The notes below the pieces were generated by a model, which saw only the letters and a list, made by a program, of their open reading frames with translations, did not search any database and was not told the origin of the DNA. Shown piece by piece: positions 4,192 to 53,233 of a DNA stretch of 64,000 nt. The stretch is taken from the IMG/VR virus record IMGVR_UViG_3300025011_000017; one strand, written 5' to 3'. A program made the translations under genes and the position numbers. How positions within the stretch are numbered: the first letter of the stretch is position 1; the number at the start of each line of letters is the position of its first letter. The DNA comes from a virus. Its lineage: Duplodnaviria > Heunggongvirae > Uroviricota > Caudoviricetes.

Positions 4192-4371
4192 GAGATGTTT
4201 ATAATACTGAAGTTAATTATTCTATATATTATTATGTTAGTTTTATTTTATGGTTTTTCATGTAATTATGGATTTCATATCAAACCAAATAAACATAAAG
4301 TAATAAGTACACTTATATTTTCTGGACTTATAATTGCAATACCATTATTATCATTGACAAATATACAATAA
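4192..4371 (+). CDS. small hydrophobic membrane protein
   Basis: ATG inside track ORF 4138..4371; shares the 16-nt initiation-region repeat aggagatgtttataat with the gene at 4410. Confidence 0.3.
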   Translation, partial: EMFIILKLIILYIIMLVLFYGFSCNYGFHIKPNKHKVISTLIFSGLIIAIPLLSLTNIQ

Positions 4372-8961: not shown

Positions 8962-9150
8962 ATGAATAAATATCATTATTTTATTTGCTACAATACTTAT
9001 GAGGGAGGAATTTCTAATTGTAATCTTGATTTAGATTATGAAATTACCTCAATTGATCACGTAGAAGAAATTGAAAAAACAATTGCTCGAAGTTTTGGTG
9101 TTTCCGATGTAGCTATGATGGGATGGCAATTGTTAAGGAAGGATGTTTAA
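8962..9150 (+). CDS. hypothetical protein
   Basis: RBS AAAAAGGAG; 62 aa. Confidence 0.4.
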   Translation: MNKYHYFICYNTYEGGISNCNLDLDYEITSIDHVEEIEKTIARSFGVSDVAMMGWQLLRKDV

Positions 9151-9151
9151 G

Positions 9152-9739
9152 ATGAAAAAGAGTAAATTAATAGCAACACTAGGGTTAGCGTTATGTTTAG
9201 TAATTGGTAATTCATCAATAATATTAGCAGGAACAGCATCTTCCTCTAAAAGTAGTTCTTCTGCAAGGAGTAGCGTTTCTACATCAAAACCATCAAGTGG
9301 CATATCATTATCTAAACCATCGTCTTCGCCAACGGTATCTAAACCTAGTGTTACTAAACCATCGTCATCTGCTCCTGTTGTATCTAAACCATCTACTACA
9401 ACTAAATCAAGTCCTGTTGTTTCTAGACAAAATTCATCTATTCCTACTAAACAACCTGTAGTTAGCAACTACAATCCTAGCACAAGAACGTATTCTACAA
9501 TGACTCCTTACACAGTTCCAAGGACTTCGTACTACTATGGTGGAAATTATCATCCTGCATTTACTCCTAGTTGGTATAATCCATATTGGTATAATCCTAC
9601 GTATTGGGGTGGAGCGCATCCTGCACCAGTAGCTACAGGAATTGGAAATTATATTGGAGGATTTATACTTAATACGTTGCTATTTTTTGGGATAATCGGC
9701 ATAATTATATGGTTTATTAAGAGAAAGAAAAGAGTGTAA
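9152..9739 (+). CDS. Ser/Thr/Pro-rich low-complexity membrane-anchored protein
   Basis: Signal peptide MKKSKLIATLGLALCLV, SKPSSS-type repeats, C-terminal TM plus KRKKRV stop-transfer; start ATG 9152 (track 9143). Confidence 0.5.
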   Translation: MKKSKLIATLGLALCLVIGNSSIILAGTASSSKSSSSARSSVSTSKPSSGISLSKPSSSPTVSKPSVTKPSSSAPVVSKPSTTTKSSPVVSRQNSSIPTKQPVVSNYNPSTRTYSTMTPYTVPRTSYYYGGNYHPAFTPSWYNPYWYNPTYWGGAHPAPVATGIGNYIGGFILNTLLFFGIIGIIIWFIKRKKRV

Positions 9740-9770: not shown

Positions 9771-9902
9771 TTGCTTGTAGGATTAATAATTATTATGATA
9801 TTATTTATTTTAGCAACACCACTATATTCTAAGATTGGTAAAAAAGTTGAAAAATTTGAAAATAAAATCAAAGAGGAGATAGAAGAAAATGAGAAATTAT
9901 GA
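9771..9902 (+). CDS. small single-TM membrane peptide (43 aa)
   Basis: TTG after TTAGGAGGTG; hydrophobic N-terminus, charged C-terminus; overlaps start of SPFH gene. Confidence 0.3.
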   Translation: MLVGLIIIMILFILATPLYSKIGKKVEKFENKIKEEIEENEKL

Positions 9903-10815
9903 TTTAGAGGACAAATTAGAGAATATGGGAAAAGTAATTAAAGGAAATAATCGCTTTTTCAAAGGTTTAGCTACAACAGTAATAGGTGCGTTAGTGTTAT
10001 TAATAGGAATCTCTTCTTCGGTTACAAAAGTGCATCCTGGTCATGCAGGAATAGTTTACAATGTTAGTGGAGGCTTAGAAGAAACAACTTTAAGTCAAGG
10101 TTGGCACATAGTAGCTCCTTGGAAAAGTGTGAGAGAATATCCTATTTCAACAGAAACAGTATGGTTAACTCAAGCTAAAACAGAAGGATCTCCAAATGAT
10201 GATTCGTATAATACCTCAACAATGGAAGGAAAACCTGTTAACGTAGATGCATATTTCACTTATCATGTTAGTGTAGATAAACTTCCTGCTATATTTAATC
10301 GTTTTAAAGGAGCAGACATTGACAGTATTCAATCAGGATATCTTAAACAACAAGTAAAAACAGCCTCTCAATCAATTACCTCTAGTTATAGCGTTCTTGA
10401 TTTATATGGTAATAAAAGAACAGAAATTCAAGATAAAATTCATCAAATATTGATTAAAGAATTAACTCCATTTGGATTAGAAGTTGAAACATTTAGCTTT
10501 GGAGAGATTCGTCCTGATGGCGATACTATGAAAGCAATTCAAGCAAAAGTTGATGCTCAACAAAAGTTACAACAAATGGAAATTGAATTAACTCAATCAA
10601 CAGTTACAGCAAACAAGGCTAAAGTAGACGCTCAAGGTATTGCTGATGCTACAGTTATTAGAGCAACGAGTGAAGCGAAGGCCAATCAATTATTACAACA
10701 ATCGTTAACTCCTGAATTAGTTCAAAAATTATGGATTGATAAATGGAACGGACAACAATCTCAAGTCGTTGGTGGAAATAATCAAATGATTAATGTTCCT
10801 GCTATCTCAAAGTAA
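9889..10815 (+). CDS. SPFH/band-7 (prohibitin/flotillin-like) domain membrane protein
   Basis: N-terminal TM then HPGHAGIVYNVSGG...GWHIVAPW band-7 signature; coiled-coil C-terminal region. Confidence 0.7.
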   Translation: MRNYDLEDKLENMGKVIKGNNRFFKGLATTVIGALVLLIGISSSVTKVHPGHAGIVYNVSGGLEETTLSQGWHIVAPWKSVREYPISTETVWLTQAKTEGSPNDDSYNTSTMEGKPVNVDAYFTYHVSVDKLPAIFNRFKGADIDSIQSGYLKQQVKTASQSITSSYSVLDLYGNKRTEIQDKIHQILIKELTPFGLEVETFSFGEIRPDGDTMKAIQAKVDAQQKLQQMEIELTQSTVTANKAKVDAQGIADATVIRATSEAKANQLLQQSLTPELVQKLWIDKWNGQQSQVVGGNNQMINVPAISK

Positions 10816-10822
10816 GAAACGA

Positions 10823-10852
10823 AGAGGGAGTAATTTAATACTCCCTCTATTA
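10823..10852 (+). terminator. stem-loop terminator after SPFH gene
   Basis: 10-bp perfect stem AGAGGGAGTA / TACTCCCTCT, 6-nt loop; weak U tract. Confidence 0.45.
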
Positions 10853-10860
10853 AAAAGGGT

Positions 10861-11067
10861 GTGTTAAAAATATCTAGTTCAAGTAGTTCTTCTGATGGAA
10901 TTGGATTTGTTGGATTATTAACAGTATTATTTATAGGCTTAAAGTTAACTAATTACATTGCTTGGTCATGGCTATGGGTTCTAAGTCCATTATGGATTTC
11001 ATCTATATTTGTTATTATTCTTCTTGTAGGAGTAATTATTGCTTGGGTAAGCAAAGGTAGTCTTTGA
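10861..11067 (+). CDS. small 2-TM membrane protein
   Basis: Hydrophobic ORF after terminator hairpin; start uncertain. Confidence 0.3.
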   Translation: MLKISSSSSSSDGIGFVGLLTVLFIGLKLTNYIAWSWLWVLSPLWISSIFVIILLVGVIIAWVSKGSL

Positions 11068-11438
11068 TGGCTAAATTATGCCCTTTAATTAATAAAAAAG
11101 TATTATATTTAGTCTGTATGGAATGTGAAAATAAAATTTGTAAAGAATAAGAAAGGAAGTATTACTATAGAAATTATTAATAAGATAAGAGGGATTTAGA
11201 TATAGGTAAAAGAATATTTTCTCAGCAAGAGATAGACGATATGGTAGATATGTATCAAAACGGAGATTCGTTTAAAGATATATCTATAGAAGACTGATCA
11301 ACAGTGGTCATTATTGATCAATAAGCAAAAATCATATATAAATCAAAGAAGATCTAAAATTGGAGAAGAATTAACTAGAGATATTATAGTCAAATATATT
11401 GACGATAATAATATAAATATTAAGGAGAGTGTATTAAG

Positions 11439-12059
11439 ATGAATAAAAACTTAACCTTTATATCCATGATTCTTGACAGAAGCGGCTCGATGTCTGGATT
11501 AGTAAATGATACAATTGGTGGATATAACTCATTTATTGAATCTCAACAAGACGAAGTTGGGGAAGCATTGTTAACAACAGTTTTATTCGACAACCATTAT
11601 GAAATATTGCATAACGGTGTGGATATCCAAGAAGTAAGACCTCTAACAAGAAGAGATTATTTTACTAGAGGAACAACTGCTCTTATGGACGCAATTGGTA
11701 AAACAATTAATTCTGTGCAAAACAGGATTGATTGGATGAATGAAAATGACAAGCCAAGTAAAGTTATTTTTGTTATTACTACAGATGGAGCAGAAAATGC
11801 TAGTAGAGAGTTTAGTCAAAGTCAAATTAAGAAAATGATTGAACAACAAACTGAACTTGGTTGGCAATTCATATTCTTAGGAGCAAATATTGATGCTGTA
11901 AGAACAGCAAGAAGTTATGGAATTAGCGAACAATCAGTTTCAAATTATACAGCAAATTCTAGAGGAACAGAATCTATATATAACAGTATGAGTAAAAATG
12001 TGGCGAGTTATCGAGGTAGTGGAATGGTACTTGATAATTGGCAGAGCGAAATTAAATAA
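11439..12059 (+). CDS. von Willebrand factor A (vWA) domain protein (TerY-like)
   Basis: MIDAS motif ILDRSGSMSG; T/D spacing typical of vWA. Confidence 0.6.
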   Translation: MNKNLTFISMILDRSGSMSGLVNDTIGGYNSFIESQQDEVGEALLTTVLFDNHYEILHNGVDIQEVRPLTRRDYFTRGTTALMDAIGKTINSVQNRIDWMNENDKPSKVIFVITTDGAENASREFSQSQIKKMIEQQTELGWQFIFLGANIDAVRTARSYGISEQSVSNYTANSRGTESIYNSMSKNVASYRGSGMVLDNWQSEIK

Positions 12060-12085
12060 TAATTAAAAGGAGTTGTTGACGTAAT

Positions 12086-12280
12086 ATGGTTACTATGTCA
12101 GAAGATAGACGAAGAAGAGAAGAAAAAGAAAGTCAGATTGGCACTTTAAGTTCTGGTTATGGTTTAAGATCTAGTTCTAAAGGTAAAGAATTAGAAGGTG
12201 AAAATTGTCATTATTGCGGAAGTTATTCTTATTCTCTAAATAGAGATGGAGCTTGTAGTTCTTGTAGGGGAAAAGTATAA
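12086..12280 (+). CDS. small Arg/Ser-rich protein with C-terminal CxxC...CxxC
   Basis: RBS AAAAGGAG; 64 aa; followed by 14-bp-stem terminator. Confidence 0.4.
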   Translation: MVTMSEDRRRREEKESQIGTLSSGYGLRSSSKGKELEGENCHYCGSYSYSLNRDGACSSCRGKV

Positions 12281-12289
12281 ATAATCAAA

Positions 12290-12326
12290 TGGATATTCTA
12301 TTATTTTGTAATAGAATATCCATTGG
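12290..12326 (+). terminator. rho-independent terminator
   Basis: 14-bp stem TGGATATTCTATTA / TAATAGAATATCCA, 5-nt loop, followed by T-rich tract. Confidence 0.6.
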
Positions 12327-12331
12327 AAAAT

Positions 12332-12427
12332 TTATTTATTAATCGAATAATAAATTAGCATACTTATAATTGGTATAAATATAACTATTAAACCTAAAAT
12401 TGTAATTATAATTTTTTTAATATTCAT
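12332..12427 (-). CDS. 31-aa hydrophobic peptide MNIKKIIITILGLIVIFIPIISMLIYYSINK (type I toxin-like / small membrane peptide); only minus-strand gene
   Basis: ATG 12427..12425 (minus) preceded by AAGGGAGAAGGAAAT RBS; single TM helix with polar C-terminal tail; lies in an otherwise ORF-free 280-bp gap. Confidence 0.45.
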   Translation of the reverse strand: MNIKKIIITILGLIVIFIPIISMLIYYSINK

Positions 12428-12559
12428 AATATTTCCTTCTCCCTTTTATTTTAATTAAAAAGACCTTGCCTAAAGACAAGGTTGAAGTAGGACGAGAGAT
12501 TTTAGTTTGACGATTAGTAGTGTATCCAAGAAGTAAATAAATATACAAGGAGTAATAAA

Positions 12560-13084
12560 ATGAAGTACAAACCAACAATTGTAATAAGTGCGTTCCCTGC
12601 TTGTGGAAAGTCTTATATGTTTAATAACTATAATGGCAAACCATTTACTATGTTAGATAGTGATTCTAGTCAATTTAGTTGGATTAAAGATGTAAATGGA
12701 GAGAATACTAAAGAAAGAGATCCTAATTTCCCTGATAATTATATTAAACATATAAAAGATAATATTGGTAAAGTAGATATTATTTTTGTTAGTAGTCATG
12801 ATATTGTTCGAAAAACATTGAACGATAATGATATCAATTTCTTTATGGTATATCCATCTAAAAGTATGAAAGAGGAATGGATTAGACGTTTTAGGGAAAG
12901 AGGTAATGATGAGAATTTTATAGACTTTATTAGTGATAATTGGGATATTTTTATTGACGATATTCAAAGAGAAAATAAGTGCTTAAAGAAACAATTATCA
13001 GTTAATATTCCTTATATTACTAATGCGTATATTGCGAGTTGTTTTGATACTTGCTACCACTATAAATTTATAGAGGAGTTGTAA
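12560..13084 (+). CDS. P-loop NTPase/kinase-like hypothetical protein
   Basis: Deviant Walker A AFPACGKSY near N-terminus; RBS ACAAGGAG. Confidence 0.4.
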   Translation: MKYKPTIVISAFPACGKSYMFNNYNGKPFTMLDSDSSQFSWIKDVNGENTKERDPNFPDNYIKHIKDNIGKVDIIFVSSHDIVRKTLNDNDINFFMVYPSKSMKEEWIRRFRERGNDENFIDFISDNWDIFIDDIQRENKCLKKQLSVNIPYITNAYIASCFDTCYHYKFIEEL

Positions 13085-13086
13085 AG

Positions 13087-14412
13087 ATGGAAAAAATATA
13101 TTCTATTCTTAAAGAGATACAAGAAACATCAAGTAGAAATCAAAAAGAAAAAATATTAAAAAATAATTCTGAAAATCAATTACTTAAAGATATATTAAAA
13201 TTTGTATTTTCTCTTGAAGTAAAAACGGGAATTAAGCGTAAAAAATTAGAAAAAGAAGTTACGTCTGACCAACTAGTTGATATTGAAGGGTTTTATGGAC
13301 TTAGAGAATATATTATTAATAATGGAACTGGATCTGATAAAGTTATTGCCAACATACAGAAATTTTTATCTGAACAAACAGAAGATTTAAAAGATTTATA
13401 CACACGTATTATTCTTCAAGACTTACGATGTAATCTGAGTGAAAAAACTATCAATAGTGCTTTTGGATATGAATTTATATATATCCATAAATTAGAGAAA
13501 GGAGAAGTAGCAGAACCAAAACATCTTAAATTACTTGAAGAAAAAGAATTTGGTATATATAAAAAAATAGATGGATATAGAGCAGAGATTGTAGTAGGAT
13601 ATGACAAGATTAAAATAATGTCATCTGGAGGTGAATTATATAAAGAATTAATTGACATTGAAAGAGCGTTTTTAGATGCTAATTTACCTAAAGGAGTATT
13701 TGCATGTGAATTGTTAGCAATTGATCCTTCGGGACAAATGACACGAATGGAAATATTTAATAAAACTGGATCTATATTACGGAGAGATGGAATAAAAGTT
13801 GGAATTGAAGTTAATGTATTTAATTTTATTCCTGACGATGGATTTTTTAAGGGAGAGCATCCATTTTCTTGTCGTAGAAGAAAGGAATTAGCGAAACAAT
13901 TAGTTGATAAAATTAATTCTCCGTTTGTAAAAAATATTGATCCTCTATATATCGGAAAAGATTTGTCTCAAATTGATTATTGGTTTGAGAAGATGATTTT
14001 AGCTGAAGATGAAGGAATAATGGTTTTACCTCTAGATCAAAGGTATGTTGGGAAAAAATCGTATACACAAATGTTGAAGATTAAAACTGAAAATGAGTGC
14101 GACATTCGCGTAATTGGTTTTGAAAAAGGAGCTAAAGGTAAGGAGTTTGAGAATACTTTAGGAACTTTAATTTGTGACTTTAAGGGAAATCCAATTAGAG
14201 TAATGTGTGGATATAAAATAAAATATAACTCAAATAAATATGATGATCGAATGGTTAGGGATTATATTTGGACTCATCAAGAAGAACTGTTAGATAAAAT
14301 CGTGAAGGTGCGTTATATGGATATCTCCATAAACGACAGTGGTGGAACAGACTTGAGAATGGCAAGACTTATTGAATATCGTGATGATAAATCAGAATCA
14401 TCATATAACTAG
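13087..14412 (+). CDS. lig: ATP-dependent DNA ligase
   Basis: Motif I KKIDGYRAEI (KxDGxR), motif III FACELLAID, motif IV EGIMVLP, motif V MLKIK. Confidence 0.8.
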   Translation: MEKIYSILKEIQETSSRNQKEKILKNNSENQLLKDILKFVFSLEVKTGIKRKKLEKEVTSDQLVDIEGFYGLREYIINNGTGSDKVIANIQKFLSEQTEDLKDLYTRIILQDLRCNLSEKTINSAFGYEFIYIHKLEKGEVAEPKHLKLLEEKEFGIYKKIDGYRAEIVVGYDKIKIMSSGGELYKELIDIERAFLDANLPKGVFACELLAIDPSGQMTRMEIFNKTGSILRRDGIKVGIEVNVFNFIPDDGFFKGEHPFSCRRRKELAKQLVDKINSPFVKNIDPLYIGKDLSQIDYWFEKMILAEDEGIMVLPLDQRYVGKKSYTQMLKIKTENECDIRVIGFEKGAKGKEFENTLGTLICDFKGNPIRVMCGYKIKYNSNKYDDRMVRDYIWTHQEELLDKIVKVRYMDISINDSGGTDLRMARLIEYRDDKSESSYN

Positions 14413-15304: not shown

Positions 15305-15760
15305 ATAATAATTAAAATAGTTGATGGAGATATTTTACAAGCATCGGAAAAACTGGTGGTGCATCAGGTTAACTGTATGGGAGTTATGGGTGGTGGCATC
15401 GCATTACAAATTAGAAATCAGCTTCCTAAAGTTTACAATGAATATAAAAGATTATGTAGTAATACTGATCCAAAACAATTATTAGGAACAATTCAATGCG
15501 TAGAAGATGATTTTGGCAGAGTATTTGTTAATTTATTCGGACAATTAAATTATGGTAGAGATAAACAATATACTGATTATGTGGCTTTAAGAAGAGGTTT
15601 GTTAAATGTTTATAATATAGCAAATCAGTATAATGTGTCAGTTGCAATTCCATTTAATATTGGTTGCGGTCTTGCGGGTGGAGATTGGAATGAAGTTTAT
15701 AAAATGATAGAAGAAATTTTCGGAGATTATGATGTAACTTTATATAGATTGGAAGTATAG
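15305..15760 (+). CDS. Macro domain protein (ADP-ribose binding/hydrolase)
   Basis: VDGDILQASEKLVVHQVNCMGVMGGGIALQI matches macro GDIT...VNAAN...GGGV motifs; conserved N-terminus lies upstream of the first canonical start (GTG 15356); start near 15305-15311 (ATA/ATT) or ATG 15298 with +1 shift in an (AAT)4 run. Confidence 0.6.
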   Translation: MIIKIVDGDILQASEKLVVHQVNCMGVMGGGIALQIRNQLPKVYNEYKRLCSNTDPKQLLGTIQCVEDDFGRVFVNLFGQLNYGRDKQYTDYVALRRGLLNVYNIANQYNVSVAIPFNIGCGLAGGDWNEVYKMIEEIFGDYDVTLYRLEV

Positions 15761-15773
15761 AAAGGAGTAACAA

Positions 15774-15941
15774 GTGGATAATAATGTTATAGGATCGTTA
15801 TATTTAGTTAAAGTTGATTCAAATGAAAATAATAATAAATATTACAAAATGATTCCAAATGGCAATGGTACATTTACAACTCAAAATGGAAGAATTGGAG
15901 TAGATCATTTTCAAACCACTACTTATCCTATTAGCAGATGA
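15774..15941 (+). CDS. WGR-domain N-terminal fragment of PARP-like protein (terminated by in-frame TGA)
   Basis: GTG with AAAGGAG RBS; NKYYKMIPNGNGTFTTQNGRIG (WGR core); remainder of WGR (KLKRKGY) continues in the same frame after TGA 15939-15941. Confidence 0.55.
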   Translation: MDNNVIGSLYLVKVDSNENNNKYYKMIPNGNGTFTTQNGRIGVDHFQTTTYPISR

Positions 15942-15962
15942 AATGAAAAATTAAATGAAAAA

Positions 15963-16988
15963 TTGAAGAGAAAAGGATACACAGACCAAACTAGATTAGT
16001 TGCAGAAATTACATCTTCTTCTAAAAATAAAGAATATTTAGATATTGAAAATTCTTCTATCTCAGCAATTGTCGCAAGATTACAAGCTATGGCTAAACAA
16101 GCTATTGCAGACAACTATACAATATCTTCAAATAAAGTAACTCAGACAATGATAGATGAAGCTCAAATAACATTAAATAATTTAATGACAGCAGATTCAA
16201 TCGAAGCGTTTAACAAAATATTAGTTGAGTTATTTCAAATTATTCCTCGTAAAATGAAAAAAGTAAAAGATAATTTAGCTAAAATAGATAAAGATTTTGG
16301 AGAAATTATTCAAAAAGAACAAGATTTGCTTGATGTGATGAAGGGTCAGGTGGTTATTACATCTGTACAAGATGAAACTGAGCAAGAAATAGTTAATAAT
16401 CAAACTATATTAGACGCTTTAGGATTAAGATTTGAAGAGATTACACAAGAAGAAGAGAGGATGATTAAGAGAGAACTTGAGGATATTAGCAATAGATATT
16501 ATCAAGCATGGAAAGTGATTAATATTAGAACTCAGGAGAGATTTAATAAATTTATTATCAATGAAAAAATTGAAGACAACAGGTTATTATTTCATGGTAC
16601 TCGTTCAGAGAACGTATGGAGTATAATTAACTCTGGATTAGTTTTAAGACCTTCCGCTAAAATTACAGGAAAAATGTTTGGATATGGAATTTATTTTGCT
16701 CCAAAAGCCCAAAAATCATTAGGATATACGTCTATTTCAGGGTCTAGATGGTCTAAAGGAAACGATAAAACTGGATTTATGGCATTATTTGACGTTGCTT
16801 ATGGAAAACCATACGATGTACACTCATTTGATAATAAGTATTATAAGTTTAACTATGAAGAATTGCAAAAAGCTAGTAAGGGTAGTAATTGTTTACATGC
16901 ACACAAAGGCAAGATGTTATTTAATGATGAGATCATAGTATACAAAGAAAATCAAATGACCATAAAGTATTTGATAGAATTAAAATAA
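15963..16988 (+). CDS. PARP-like ADP-ribosyltransferase catalytic region (helical domain + ART; H-Y-E triad present)
   Basis: [39 protein letters not shown] close to PARP1 [48 protein letters not shown] matches the catalytic-Glu motif; same frame as the WGR ORF. Confidence 0.75.
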   Translation: [341 protein letters not shown]

Positions 16989-17002
16989 AATAAAGGAGAG
17001 GC

Positions 17003-27199: not shown

Positions 27200-28912
27200 A
27201 TGAAATGTGATCCGATGTTTTGGGCAGATTTTTACAAAATTAGTCACTATTTGATGGGAGAAAAGGGTACGGAAAAACTTTATTCCACGTTTACACCACG
27301 ACATTCTAGAATAGAGGGAATTAATGAAGTAGTATTTTTTGGACTCCAAGGCTTCATTAAAGATTATATCATAGAGCAGTTTAACGTAGGATTTTTTAAA
27401 GTAAAAAAATCAAAAGTAATAAAAAGATATAAACGTCTTATATCATGTACTTTAGGAGATGGTTGTGCTGACTCTTCCCATATTGAAGCATTACATGATC
27501 TTGGGTATCTTCCTATTAGAATTAAGGCTGTCAAAGAAGGAACTTTGATTCCTATGAGAGTACCTGTATTTACAATTGAAAGTACAGATGAAAATTTTTA
27601 TTGGTTGCCTCTGTTTATGGAAACATTTATAAGTGCAAATATATGGAAAGTAATCACTTCTACAACTATTGTTAAAAAATACAGGGATATTTGTGAAAAA
27701 TGGTCAGAAAAAACATGTGATGATAGGTCGCATATTCAATGGCAATGTCATAATTTTAGTTATCGTGGAATGTCGGGAAATGAAGACGCTACTACTACAG
27801 GAGCAGGACATCTATTATATTTCACGGGTACAGATACGATTCCTTCTATTCTATATTTAGAAGATTATTATGGAACCAATGTAGAAAAAGAGCTTGTAGG
27901 AGCGTCAGTTCTTGCTACTGAGCATAGTATCCAATGTGGATATCAAGATGATATGAGATATTTTAAGAGAATGATTACAGAGGTTGCTCCAAATGGCATA
28001 GTTTCTGTTGTCGCAGATGGATATGATTATTGGAATTTCATTGGTAATATTGTTCCTGCTTTAAAAGAAGATATTATGAATAGAGATGGGAAGGCTGTAA
28101 TTCGTCCTGATTCTGGTTCGCCAATTAAAATCATTTGTGGGACAGTAATTGTTGAAAGTTTAACTAATCAAAATTATTGTGAAACATTAGAAAAATGTAA
28201 GACATGGATGCTAGATGGAATTAAAGAAGAAGTAAGAGTTGAAACTCCTCATGGAGAATATGGCGATTCCGAAGTAACTAGATACTTTAAATTTGACAAT
28301 AAAATATATAAAATCGTTGTTGAATTTGATTGGAATAGATACGATAAACAATATTATTATATGGATGGTAGTCGTGTAATAAGTTGTGATGAAATAGAAT
28401 TAACTATTGAACAAAAAGGTTCGGTAGAAGCATTATGGGATACGTTTGGAGGTACTGTTAATAGTAAGGGATATAAAGTATTAGATAGTCATGTGGGATT
28501 AATATATGGCGATTCAATTACTCCTGAATATGCAGAAGAAATTCTTAAACAACTAGAAGAAAAAGGTTTTGCAAGTTCGAATATTGTTTTTGGAGTGGGG
28601 TCTTATTCATTAGGATACTACACAAGAGATACCTTTGCGTTTGCTATGAAGGCGACTTACACCGTAATTAATGGAGAAGAGAGATTCATATTTAAAGATC
28701 CTAAAACAGATAATGGAATTAAAAAATCTCAAAGAGGTATGGTTGTAGTTCTACAAGATCTTGATACTGGTGAAATTTATTTTAAAGATGGATTAAATGC
28801 TGAAGAAAGAGATAATTATAAAGAATATGATTTACTTGAAGATGTTTTCGTTGACGGAAAAATGGTAAGGGAACAAACTTTGGCAGAAATAAGAGCAATC
28901 GTCTTAAAGTAA
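27200..28912 (+). CDS. nicotinamide phosphoribosyltransferase family protein (Nampt/Namat-like)
   Basis: Collinear with human NAMPT motifs: FWADFYKISHY / LPIRIKAVKEGTLIP / HNFSYRGMSGNEDATTTGAGHLLYFTGTDT / IRPDSGSP. Confidence 0.85.
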   Translation: MKCDPMFWADFYKISHYLMGEKGTEKLYSTFTPRHSRIEGINEVVFFGLQGFIKDYIIEQFNVGFFKVKKSKVIKRYKRLISCTLGDGCADSSHIEALHDLGYLPIRIKAVKEGTLIPMRVPVFTIESTDENFYWLPLFMETFISANIWKVITSTTIVKKYRDICEKWSEKTCDDRSHIQWQCHNFSYRGMSGNEDATTTGAGHLLYFTGTDTIPSILYLEDYYGTNVEKELVGASVLATEHSIQCGYQDDMRYFKRMITEVAPNGIVSVVADGYDYWNFIGNIVPALKEDIMNRDGKAVIRPDSGSPIKIICGTVIVESLTNQNYCETLEKCKTWMLDGIKEEVRVETPHGEYGDSEVTRYFKFDNKIYKIVVEFDWNRYDKQYYYMDGSRVISCDEIELTIEQKGSVEALWDTFGGTVNSKGYKVLDSHVGLIYGDSITPEYAEEILKQLEEKGFASSNIVFGVGSYSLGYYTRDTFAFAMKATYTVINGEERFIFKDPKTDNGIKKSQRGMVVVLQDLDTGEIYFKDGLNAEERDNYKEYDLLEDVFVDGKMVREQTLAEIRAIVLK

Positions 28913-52634: not shown

Positions 52635-53006
52635 ATGGTGAAATTATTCCATCAAAGTTTCAATCACCCTATAGCAGATAAACCTACTTTTATGCCAATC
52701 GAAAGAGCAAATATGAGATATAAATGGATGCTCGAAGAAATAAATGAATTTTTAGAGGCAAATGATATTTGTTGCCAAGTGGATGCAATTATCGATAATA
52801 TTTATTTTAGTCTAGGAACTCTCGTAGAAATTGGTATTAGTCCAGATAAAATATTTAAGATTGTTCAAGACGCTAATATGAAGAAATTATTTCCTGATGG
52901 AAAACCACATTATAGTCCAGAAGGTAAAGTAATTAAACCTGATAATTGGAAACCTCCAGAACCCAAGATTAAAAAAGTTATAGATAAGTTAATGAGAGGT
53001 GTGTAA
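52635..53006 (+). CDS. all-alpha NTP-pyrophosphohydrolase-like hypothetical protein
   Basis: ATG is 27 nt from GGAGG; frame open from 52611, so ATA 52614 / ATT 52617 may be the real start. Confidence 0.4.
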   Translation: MVKLFHQSFNHPIADKPTFMPIERANMRYKWMLEEINEFLEANDICCQVDAIIDNIYFSLGTLVEIGISPDKIFKIVQDANMKKLFPDGKPHYSPEGKVIKPDNWKPPEPKIKKVIDKLMRGV

Positions 53007-53233
53007 TGCTAGAAATTGGCGAAAAACAAAAATATGTTGTAGGACAAGAGATTAAAGTAAAGCGTACAGATGGCTCATGGAGTGATGCAAAAGTAACAGG
53101 AGTCTATCACAGTGGCATAGATGTTGAATTTTTAGTTGGTAATACTTTTAGAGGACAAGAACACGGTGGAGATCCTAACAGAAAAGCGTTTAAATTTATT
53201 ACAACACAATTATATAATACAAATATAAAATAA
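53006..53233 (+). CDS. hypothetical protein
   Basis: TAATG coupling; 75 aa. Confidence 0.4.
   Translation: MLEIGEKQKYVVGQEIKVKRTDGSWSDAKVTGVYHSGIDVEFLVGNTFRGQEHGGDPNRKAFKFITTQLYNTNIK

Follow-up and report, generated by a model that had tools for sequence, protein, structure and literature searches.

The 64,000-nucleotide (nt) window analyzed here, a stretch of the virus record IMGVR_UViG_3300025011_000017, contains a gap between two + strand genes (12281-12559) that carries, on the minus strand, an open reading frame (ORF) of 31 amino acids (aa) and, directly upstream of it, a conserved non-coding RNA element (Table 1). Comparison with related phages makes it almost certain that the ORF is a real gene, and very probable that a hairpin in the element, which we call hairpin B, terminates minus-strand RNA. 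The 28-31-aa peptide family and the predicted 55-79-nt RNA both appear to be undescribed so far. For the architecture as a whole, we lean, with some reserve, toward a minus-strand unit under terminator read-through, that is, attenuation, in which a terminated small RNA is followed by the gene for a toxin-like membrane peptide.

A family of small membrane peptides

An initial annotation of the gap had singled out the minus-strand ORF at 12427..12332 and its strong ribosome-binding site (RBS), and both are indeed present. Within the 64 kb, minus-strand ORFs of at least 25 aa that begin with ATG and have a 5-nt Shine-Dalgarno match number 3, versus 71 on the + strand, and this ORF is the only one of the three that is intergenic, the other two lying antisense inside coding sequence. 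The encoded peptide has a hydrophobic core at residues 6-27 (22 residues, mean Kyte-Doolittle value 2.7) with basic residues at both ends (in the window peptide, KK at the N terminus and K at the C terminus), which bears out the single transmembrane helix proposed at the outset.

Our first handle on relatives was a set of five IMG/VR contigs (58-230 kb) with an 83-84% identical copy of the 174-aa protein encoded downstream of the gap. The genes directly upstream of this protein in these contigs differ from those of the window, and a local blastn alignment matched window positions 12340-12551 to L001:1180-1393 (77% identical), about 1.8 kb further upstream, where the minus strand contains the ORF MDIRRILIIILGLLIIATPFIGMLIYYLSR. 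A degenerate pattern based on the conserved non-coding core gave 19 metagenome loci, one of which is a G+C-rich chance match, and a pattern based on the ORF gave three further viral contigs (L037, L038, and L039). These relatives come from a handful of related metagenomes, so the variants cannot be counted as independent of one another.

Intact ORFs of 28-31 aa are present in 11 distinct variants (U01, U03, which is the window version, U04, U05, U07, U09, U13, U16, U17, L037, and L038). The consensus of the peptides is M-[DN]-I-[KR]-[KR]-x-[IV]-I-I-I-L-G-L-I-I-I-A-T-P-F-[IV]-G-M-L-I-Y-Y-L-[SN]-[KR], with I8, L11, G12, L13, and P19 invariant and a conserved core of the form LGL...P(F/I)...(L/I)IYY. 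All insertions and deletions (indels) among the intact variants are multiples of three and thus whole codons, and the ratio of nonsynonymous to synonymous divergence (dN/dS, Nei-Gojobori) is 0.09-0.77, falling below 1 in 44 of 44 informative pairs. Synonymous sites appear free to drift while the protein is held, as the proportion of synonymous differences (pS) between non-identical pairs is 0.11-0.69. An equivalent of the Shine-Dalgarno site (AAGGAG, GGAAGG, or AGGATG) precedes every intact homolog. The in-frame indels and dN/dS below 1 across 11 intact versions argue for a genuine gene for a small single-pass membrane protein; conservation in related phages, on which the initial annotation had staked its proposal, thus takes the form of purifying selection.

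Two other readings of the ORF can be weighed against these data. The first is that it is a chance open frame, untranslated, in T-rich DNA. The + strand of the window is 39% A, 31% T, 19% G, and 11% C; since the minus strand is therefore 39% T, hydrophobic frames arise easily there, and the gene calls of the public assemblies that we checked (ENA, Logan, and JGI) all skip the ORF. Chance, however, would have to have kept the frame, start codon, Shine-Dalgarno site, and length in 11 diverged copies, with the indel and dN/dS patterns described above, and to have supplied a G-rich Shine-Dalgarno site on a strand that is only 11% G. We regard this explanation as extremely improbable. The second is that the peptide is a secreted signaling pro-peptide of the quorum-sensing, arbitrium, or short hydrophobic peptide-like kind, with an N-terminal export signal and a C-terminal signal. 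Its N terminus (M-D/N-I-K/R-K/R followed by the hydrophobic stretch) resembles the n/h region of a signal peptide, and cleavage might occur at the A-T-P that is conserved behind the hydrophobic run. However, the hydrophobic stretch passes the proline toward the C terminus and, at 22 residues, better fits a membrane anchor; moreover, there is no adjacent conserved receptor gene, the neighbors vary, and no family match was obtained, leaving a signaling role very improbable.

We consider the peptide to be a probable accessory factor, toxin-like or membrane modulating, that would be dispensable and is often lost. At the membrane, it could act by toxin-like permeabilization or by modulation of a host membrane protein. 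The only recurrent profile match was to PLDc_N at peptide positions 24-39, at 12-15 bits versus a cut-off of 23.3; being below threshold, this resemblance was set aside as a lead only.

The conserved RNA element and its probable terminator

Conservation at the locus is highest not in the ORF but in the ~80 nt between hairpin B and the RBS of the next + strand gene. The ~45-60 nt that precede hairpin B are conserved and include the invariant motif CUCGUCCUAC, which was forced by the pattern used to search metagenomes but also occurs in five versions recovered by other routes (L001, L002, L037, L038, and L039). The possibility that the element is coding sequence is ruled out by indels of 1-2 nt. 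RNA folding of the gap as a whole gave z = -4.65 for the minus strand and z = -2.82 for the plus strand.

Hairpin B corresponds to a terminator-like structure that the initial annotation had placed in the 5′ region of the ORF. The sequence it quoted is correct; the position is 12463-12482 rather than 12449-12478, and the stem, in the minus sense, is 8 bp rather than 11 bp. The structure itself has held up, since covariation and G·U asymmetry show it to be selected in the minus-strand RNA. Four of the eight pairs in the stem are G-C and CUUUUU follows directly 3′ on the minus strand, which is the makeup of an intrinsic terminator. The window hairpin folds at -9.8 kcal/mol when read as minus-strand RNA and at -5.8 kcal/mol when read as plus-strand RNA. 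Across the family, 12 of 13 distinct stems have minus-sense folds of -9.8 to -13.7 kcal/mol (the U14 stem is at -3.5 kcal/mol). The margin over the plus-sense fold is at least 4 kcal/mol for 11 of these 13 stems, and no variant folds more stably in the plus sense.

Comparison of the stems provides the evidence for selection. Their sequences vary while pairing is kept (CCUUGC.../...GCAGGG, CCUCUUAG/CUAAGAGG, CCUCUUC/GGGAGAGG, and others), and four stem pairs have changed on both sides. Overall, 92.3% of the hairpin B cells of the family are paired in the minus sense versus 76% in the plus sense; in controls, only 0-3 of 500 shuffles attained these values, and pairing in shifted registers was 37-58%. 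G·U pairs occupy 18 cells in the minus sense versus 1 in the plus sense, where the corresponding cells are C·A mismatches. The CTTTTT (CUUUUU) that follows hairpin B on the minus strand is invariant in every variant. Together, the covariation, the strand asymmetry of the G·U pairs, and the invariant U tract strongly indicate that hairpin B, which lies upstream of the ORF, acts as an intrinsic terminator on the minus strand.

A covariance model of the element finds the window copy at 79.2 bits (E 8e-15) and exactly one copy per locus at 75-99 bits, the next best match in the window reaching 17.7 bits; the E-values are rough, as the calibration was shortened. The element is thus single-copy both in the window and in each related contig of up to 230 kb. 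When positions 11000-14000 were scanned against Rfam with cmscan at E up to 10, the only matches were two chance ones to small nucleolar RNAs, both located elsewhere.

How do the ORF and the element depend on each other? The Shine-Dalgarno site starts 10-20 nt past the U tract in every ORF-bearing variant (~60 nt in U05 and U07), and the 10-20 nt spacing leaves no room for a separate ORF promoter. The ORF always lies behind the element and was never found without it; the three copies recovered with the ORF-only pattern all have the element. The reverse does not hold, as the element is kept in eight variants that lack a working ORF. U06 has a clean deletion of the ORF but retains the Shine-Dalgarno site, whereas U08 has lost both. 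Other DNA stands in place of the ORF in U02, U11, and U18, and in U02 and U11 this is a + strand gene for a small membrane protein. The start codon of U15 has changed from ATG to ATA, and L039 has lost both the Shine-Dalgarno site and the ATG. In U14 (L030), the 3′ half of the ORF is replaced and hairpin B is weakened to the -3.5 kcal/mol noted above, compared with about -10 in the others; this single case is only suggestive of a terminator that is constrained because of the ORF. Since the element is always kept while the ORF is often lost, the element would have a function of its own, and the comparisons portray the peptide gene as an often-lost accessory that is dependent on it.

The slot occupied by the ORF is also used by other genes. 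Relatives without the peptide gene have unrelated + strand genes for small membrane proteins at this site, ending right at hairpin B; one is L002:839-1021 (+), of 60 aa (MEIKWKLLLFKL...), and the other is an L027 + strand ORF beginning MLNIITFILIIIGLGS.... The slot looks like a hot spot for small membrane proteins.

Given these surroundings, the element might instead be chiefly a + strand regulatory or recombination cassette, like the PeSL (promoter-early stem-loop) motifs of T4-like phages, which ends upstream transcription and restarts it for the next gene, the ORF being an unrelated passenger. Its location would suit such a role: it always lies 2-12 nt upstream of the RBS of a + strand gene, the downstream gene varies, with at least five seen so far, which is what a recombination joint within a hyperplastic region would produce, and in L002-type and L027-type relatives the + strand small membrane-protein gene abuts hairpin B. 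However, the hairpin is selected in the minus sense, as shown by the G·U cells (18 versus 1) and the paired fractions (92% versus 76%), the U tract is on the minus strand, and the element, unlike PeSLs, is single-copy in each genome. Moreover, there is no + strand -35/-10 pair with a workable spacer, TTGAC(G/A) being at least 22 nt from any -10-like box. A cassette of this type is highly unlikely. A + strand promoter inside the element was rejected because of these spacers.

Table 1. Features of the gap and its two flanking genes in the window
Feature	Position	Strand	Description
64-aa ORF	12086-12280	+	Upstream neighbor of the gap
Gap	12281-12559		Between two + strand genes
Hairpin A	12288-12324		16-bp perfect AT-rich palindrome, 5-nt loop; found by terminator scan; lies between convergent stop codons
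Small ORF	12332..12427	-	ATG start, 31 aa plus stop, MNIKKIIITILGLIVIFIPIISMLIYYSINK; single-pass membrane peptide, from the ORF listing, 11 intact homologs, and dN/dS
Shine-Dalgarno site	12434..12443	-	GGGAGAAGGA; 6 nt upstream of the ATG
Predicted intrinsic terminator	12457..12482	-	Hairpin B (12482..12463, 8 bp, 4-nt loop), then C and U5 (12461..12457)
Conserved non-coding RNA element	12456..12534	-	~55-79 nt, with motif CUCGUCCUAC; directly upstream of the peptide gene; covariance model
Putative promoter region	12519..12550	-	Conserved -10-like positions
174-aa P-loop-like ORF	12560-13084	+	Downstream neighbor of the gap

Proposed expression of the minus-strand unit

The putative promoter of the minus-strand RNA is our own reading of conserved positions. 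The -10-like positions (A at -11 and T at -7) are invariant or nearly so in the alignment, and a second -10-like box, TAnnnT inside TTGGATATATTA, lies ~20 nt downstream. One reading places the -10 box at TATATT (12545..12540), which is TATAAT in most relatives; the other consists of a -35 box TTGTAT (12548..12543), an 18-nt spacer, and a -10 box TACACT (12524..12519). A 19-nt unit is present as a tandem duplicate at 12523-12559 (+) (TATCCAAGAAGTAAATAAA / TATACAAGGAGTAATAAAA). Because this duplication gives two -10-like boxes ~20 nt apart on the minus strand, the start of the RNA is ambiguous; we infer a start near 12534 or near 12512, giving an RNA of ~79 or ~55 nt.

If the unit is controlled by attenuation, a host-type promoter whose -10 box abuts the RBS of the downstream + strand gene would start the 55-79-nt non-coding RNA, and most transcripts would stop at hairpin B and its U5 as free small RNA. 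Polymerases that read through would go on for 10-20 nt into the strong Shine-Dalgarno site and the 28-31-codon ORF, and translation of this minority of transcripts would yield the membrane peptide in low, attenuated amounts. Antisense transcription may contribute. Near-consensus + strand promoters of the form TTGACA-17-(TG)TATAAT are present in many gaps of the window but not in the gap at 12281-12559 and, because this gap lacks a + strand promoter, + strand transcripts that cross it to reach the 174-aa gene must exist. Any such transcript is a full antisense of the peptide messenger RNA (mRNA). Head-on phage transcripts crossing the whole ORF could therefore serve as a complete natural antisense that lowers peptide expression further during the early program.

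Several observations weigh against this scheme. The match of the minus-strand -35 box is poor, and both promoter readings fit the conservation. The 5′ leader pairs with the ribosome-binding region no better than shuffles do (z -0.6 to +1.2), cognate combinations being equal to non-cognate ones, so translational control by the leader is unsupported. Because the element abuts the start of varying + strand genes, some role in + strand expression or recombination must be allowed for. Finally, the peptide had no significant match in Pfam, NCBIfam, PHROG, PADLOC, or PDB, and its sole counterpart at E up to 1e-3 among 1.84 billion representative proteins was one identical 31-aa peptide. We also considered an anti-Shine-Dalgarno pairing of UCCUACUUC with GGAGAAGGA, which is part of the minimum-energy fold of the window; it was rejected, as the duplexes across variants are no better than those of shuffles.

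The initial annotation had interpreted the locus as a convergent type I toxin-antitoxin system. In such a system, the peptide would be a membrane toxin and a + strand antisense RNA, either a dedicated small RNA or read-through of the upstream + strand gene, would block translation of its mRNA or trigger its decay. What stands of this proposal is a conserved small hydrophobic gene of toxin size and shape with a 5′ hairpin; an antisense antitoxin gene was not found. Several features would fit. At <60 aa, with one transmembrane helix and a basic C terminus, the peptide agrees with the definition of these toxins (PMC6563280), and + strand polycistronic RNA is necessarily fully antisense to its mRNA. 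A weak + strand promoter match in the window (TTGGAA-17-AATAAT, 12323-12351) could start an antisense RNA, and the repeated loss or disabling of the ORF with the RNA kept resembles decay of a toxin that leaves an orphan regulator behind.

Other findings count against it. There is no conserved + strand promoter: the best matches reach 8-9 of 12 positions, their -35 parts are not conserved, and the recurrent -10-like boxes on the + strand are simply conserved III/YY codons in reverse. Read in the plus sense, hairpin B is a weak, mismatched stem that lacks a U tract, and the synonymous sites of the ORF are unconstrained (the pS values given above). The layout is not the convergent one that had been described, since the conserved RNA is on the same strand as the ORF, upstream of it, and has its own terminator. 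Hairpin A, which had been counted as part of the locus as a terminator facing the ORF, is not conserved; it is absent from all relatives and present only in this phage.

Database searches also gave no support to a type I system. The peptide had been likened to Fst/TxpA/Hok-type toxins, a likeness that holds for size and the single transmembrane helix and does not extend to family membership: in the search of small-toxin profiles that the initial annotation had proposed as a check, 10 aligned members of the peptide family and 4 further sequences gave no match at E up to 10 to known type I families (Fst, Hok/Gef, Ldr, TxpA, Ibs, and others in Pfam and NCBIfam). The locus is absent from plasmids, cultured phages, and reference genomes; tblastn and blastn gave no meaningful match among cultured phages or plasmids, and patterns for the module and for the ORF each gave 0 matches in 185,579 reference genomes. 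With no match in reference genomes, no host can be assigned and there is no evidence for a prophage state. We consider a bona fide type I system to be unlikely.

It is also conceivable, although we rate this as distinctly unlikely, that the locus is an RNA-controlled toxin module of a new kind in a large, probably lytic phage. An abundant terminated small RNA and a membrane toxin would then follow one another on a single strand, in the manner of type III systems, with the RNA acting by base-pairing, in the manner of type I systems. In such a module, the RNA would target the read-through toxin mRNA or phage or host mRNAs, for example via CUCGUCCUAC, with 53039-53053 as a candidate site, and collapse of early phage transcription would release the peptide.

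The candidate site itself, GTAGGACAAGAGATT (53039-53053, +), lies in the gene at 53006-53233 and matches the + strand of the element (12487-12501) at 14 of 15 positions, a match with a chance expectation of 0.01 per 15-mer, or ~0.1-0.2 allowing for post-hoc choice. The minus-strand RNA could thus pair with codons 12-16 of the mRNA of this 75-aa gene.

Genomic setting and known systems

The window represents the early/replication region of a large phage with AT-rich DNA. Its genes encode DNA polymerase, ribonucleotide reductase, a DnaB-like helicase, RecJ, nicotinamide phosphoribosyltransferase, RNA and DNA ligases, proteins with PARP, Macro, and WGR domains, and an SPFH protein. The same phage is present in ENA, Logan, and JGI assemblies, in contigs of up to 183 kb, and the gap is 100% identical in the aligned ENA and Logan copies. 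An exact-sequence look-up did not find the peptide among recorded gene calls, and the neighboring proteins fall into clusters with themselves as sole members. With ~20 gaps of at least 100 nt in the window, the gap is by itself unremarkable. There are 3 terminator-like sites in 10800-13600, versus 0.2 expected from shuffles.

All convincing genes of the window other than the 31-aa ORF are on the + strand, in agreement with the initial annotation as far as tested. One public annotation contains a 111-aa minus-strand gene at 9133-9468, opposite a + strand frame at 9153-9739. The product of this + strand frame has a signal peptide, a region rich in Ser/Thr/Pro, and a membrane anchor at its C terminus, and the frame also has a good RBS and a weak PHROG match. 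The minus-strand call is probably a shadow ORF antisense to a + strand gene for a secreted protein.

Hairpin A, a probable two-way terminator, is separated by 8 nt from the stop codon of each convergent gene. The initial annotation had detected it and came close to its dimensions, giving a 14-bp stem at 12290-12326 for what is a 16-bp stem at 12288-12324. In the relatives, the convergent + strand gene ends at most 30 nt from the ORF, with no hairpin or terminator between. The 64-aa protein encoded upstream of the gap has a CxxC-x14-CxxC motif and resembles a zinc ribbon. It had zero homologs among 5.8 billion clustered proteins; its gene and hairpin A both appear to be specific to the present phage.

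Other parts of the window are of separate interest. Twelve near-consensus + strand promoters, in or adjoining intergenic gaps at 4354, 5770, 6037, 6664, 23035, 26334, 32432, 36496, 37428, 39027, 47808, and 59519, have the form TTGACA-17-TATAAT or TATACT, with an upstream TG in most, and look like a host sigma-A-dependent early promoter set. Genes for Macro, WGR, and PARP domain proteins are adjacent to one another, with nicotinamide phosphoribosyltransferase further on (about 15356-17000 and 27200-28912, +); this NAD/ADP-ribose-related set possibly has a counter-defense function. The SPFH/Band-7 gene (9889-11067, +) is followed by a G+C-rich 10-bp hairpin (10823-10848) and then by the gene for a 68-aa two-helix membrane protein (PHROG 1374), and the two proteins possibly form an SPFH-partner pair.

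Very small membrane proteins and phage small RNAs are routinely missed by annotation. The locus provides a comparative case, in uncultivated phages of ~100-230 kb, for a new family of 28-31-aa membrane peptides and a new 55-79-nt RNA that always precedes it, and it makes the minus-strand RNA a candidate phage small RNA. If the peptide is not toxic, the locus would still be a clean case of an accessory gene that is controlled by read-through and runs counter to the phage transcripts around it.

Among known systems, type I toxins are hydrophobic, shorter than 60 aa, and have a transmembrane domain and charged C-terminal residues (PMC6563280). Those of Gram-positive bacteria and prophages that have been reviewed include Fst/RNAII, TxpA/RatA, BsrG/SR4, and the C. 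difficile CD0977.1-RCd11 group (PMC6563280, PMC7699646). The present peptide, with its length, single helix, and basic end, falls within this definition, and the locus is similar in being phage borne, in having a structured 5′ region and opposing antisense transcription, and in its patchy distribution with frequent loss. It differs in that we found no gene for a dedicated antisense RNA, and its conserved RNA is same-strand, upstream, and self-terminated. Moreover, the peptide lacks sequence similarity to known toxin families and has one C-terminal basic residue rather than a lysine-rich tail, and the carrier, judged from the early/replication region that is seen, looks like a large phage rather than an integrated prophage or plasmid.

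Like the element, the PeSL promoter-terminator cassettes of T4-like phages (PMC2839356, PMC4122927) are short, conserved intergenic stem-loops within a hyperplastic early region, and the genes that flank them differ between close relatives. However, the element does not occur in many copies bracketing variable ORFs, selection on its stem-loop and U tract acts on the strand opposite the genes, and no + strand promoter with workable spacing accompanies it. As in the attenuation leaders of Firmicutes, the RBS of the regulated gene is directly preceded by a short, conserved leader with its promoter and intrinsic terminator, but we identified no alternative antiterminator pairing and no Rfam match, and the leader persists where the gene is gone; this resemblance is superficial.

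In type III toxin-antitoxin systems such as ToxIN and AvcID (PMC3401426, PMC10511110), a terminator sets a high ratio of RNA to protein. The order of promoter, non-coding RNA, intrinsic terminator, and protein gene on one strand is also that of the present locus. Type III antitoxin RNAs, however, are built of tandem repeats and are processed and bound by endoribonuclease toxins of ~170 aa or more, whereas the present RNA has no tandem repeats, the only repeat being the 19-nt duplication in the promoter region, and the protein is a 31-aa membrane peptide. Since such a peptide is not an RNA-binding enzyme, direct neutralization of protein by RNA is implausible. If the peptide proves toxic, RNA-controlled toxin modules would be extended to a same-strand layout in which the terminator sets the dose and the carrier is a phage of virulent type. 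Set against these systems, we rate the locus as a probable small phage gene, membrane or toxin-like, under RNA-level control.

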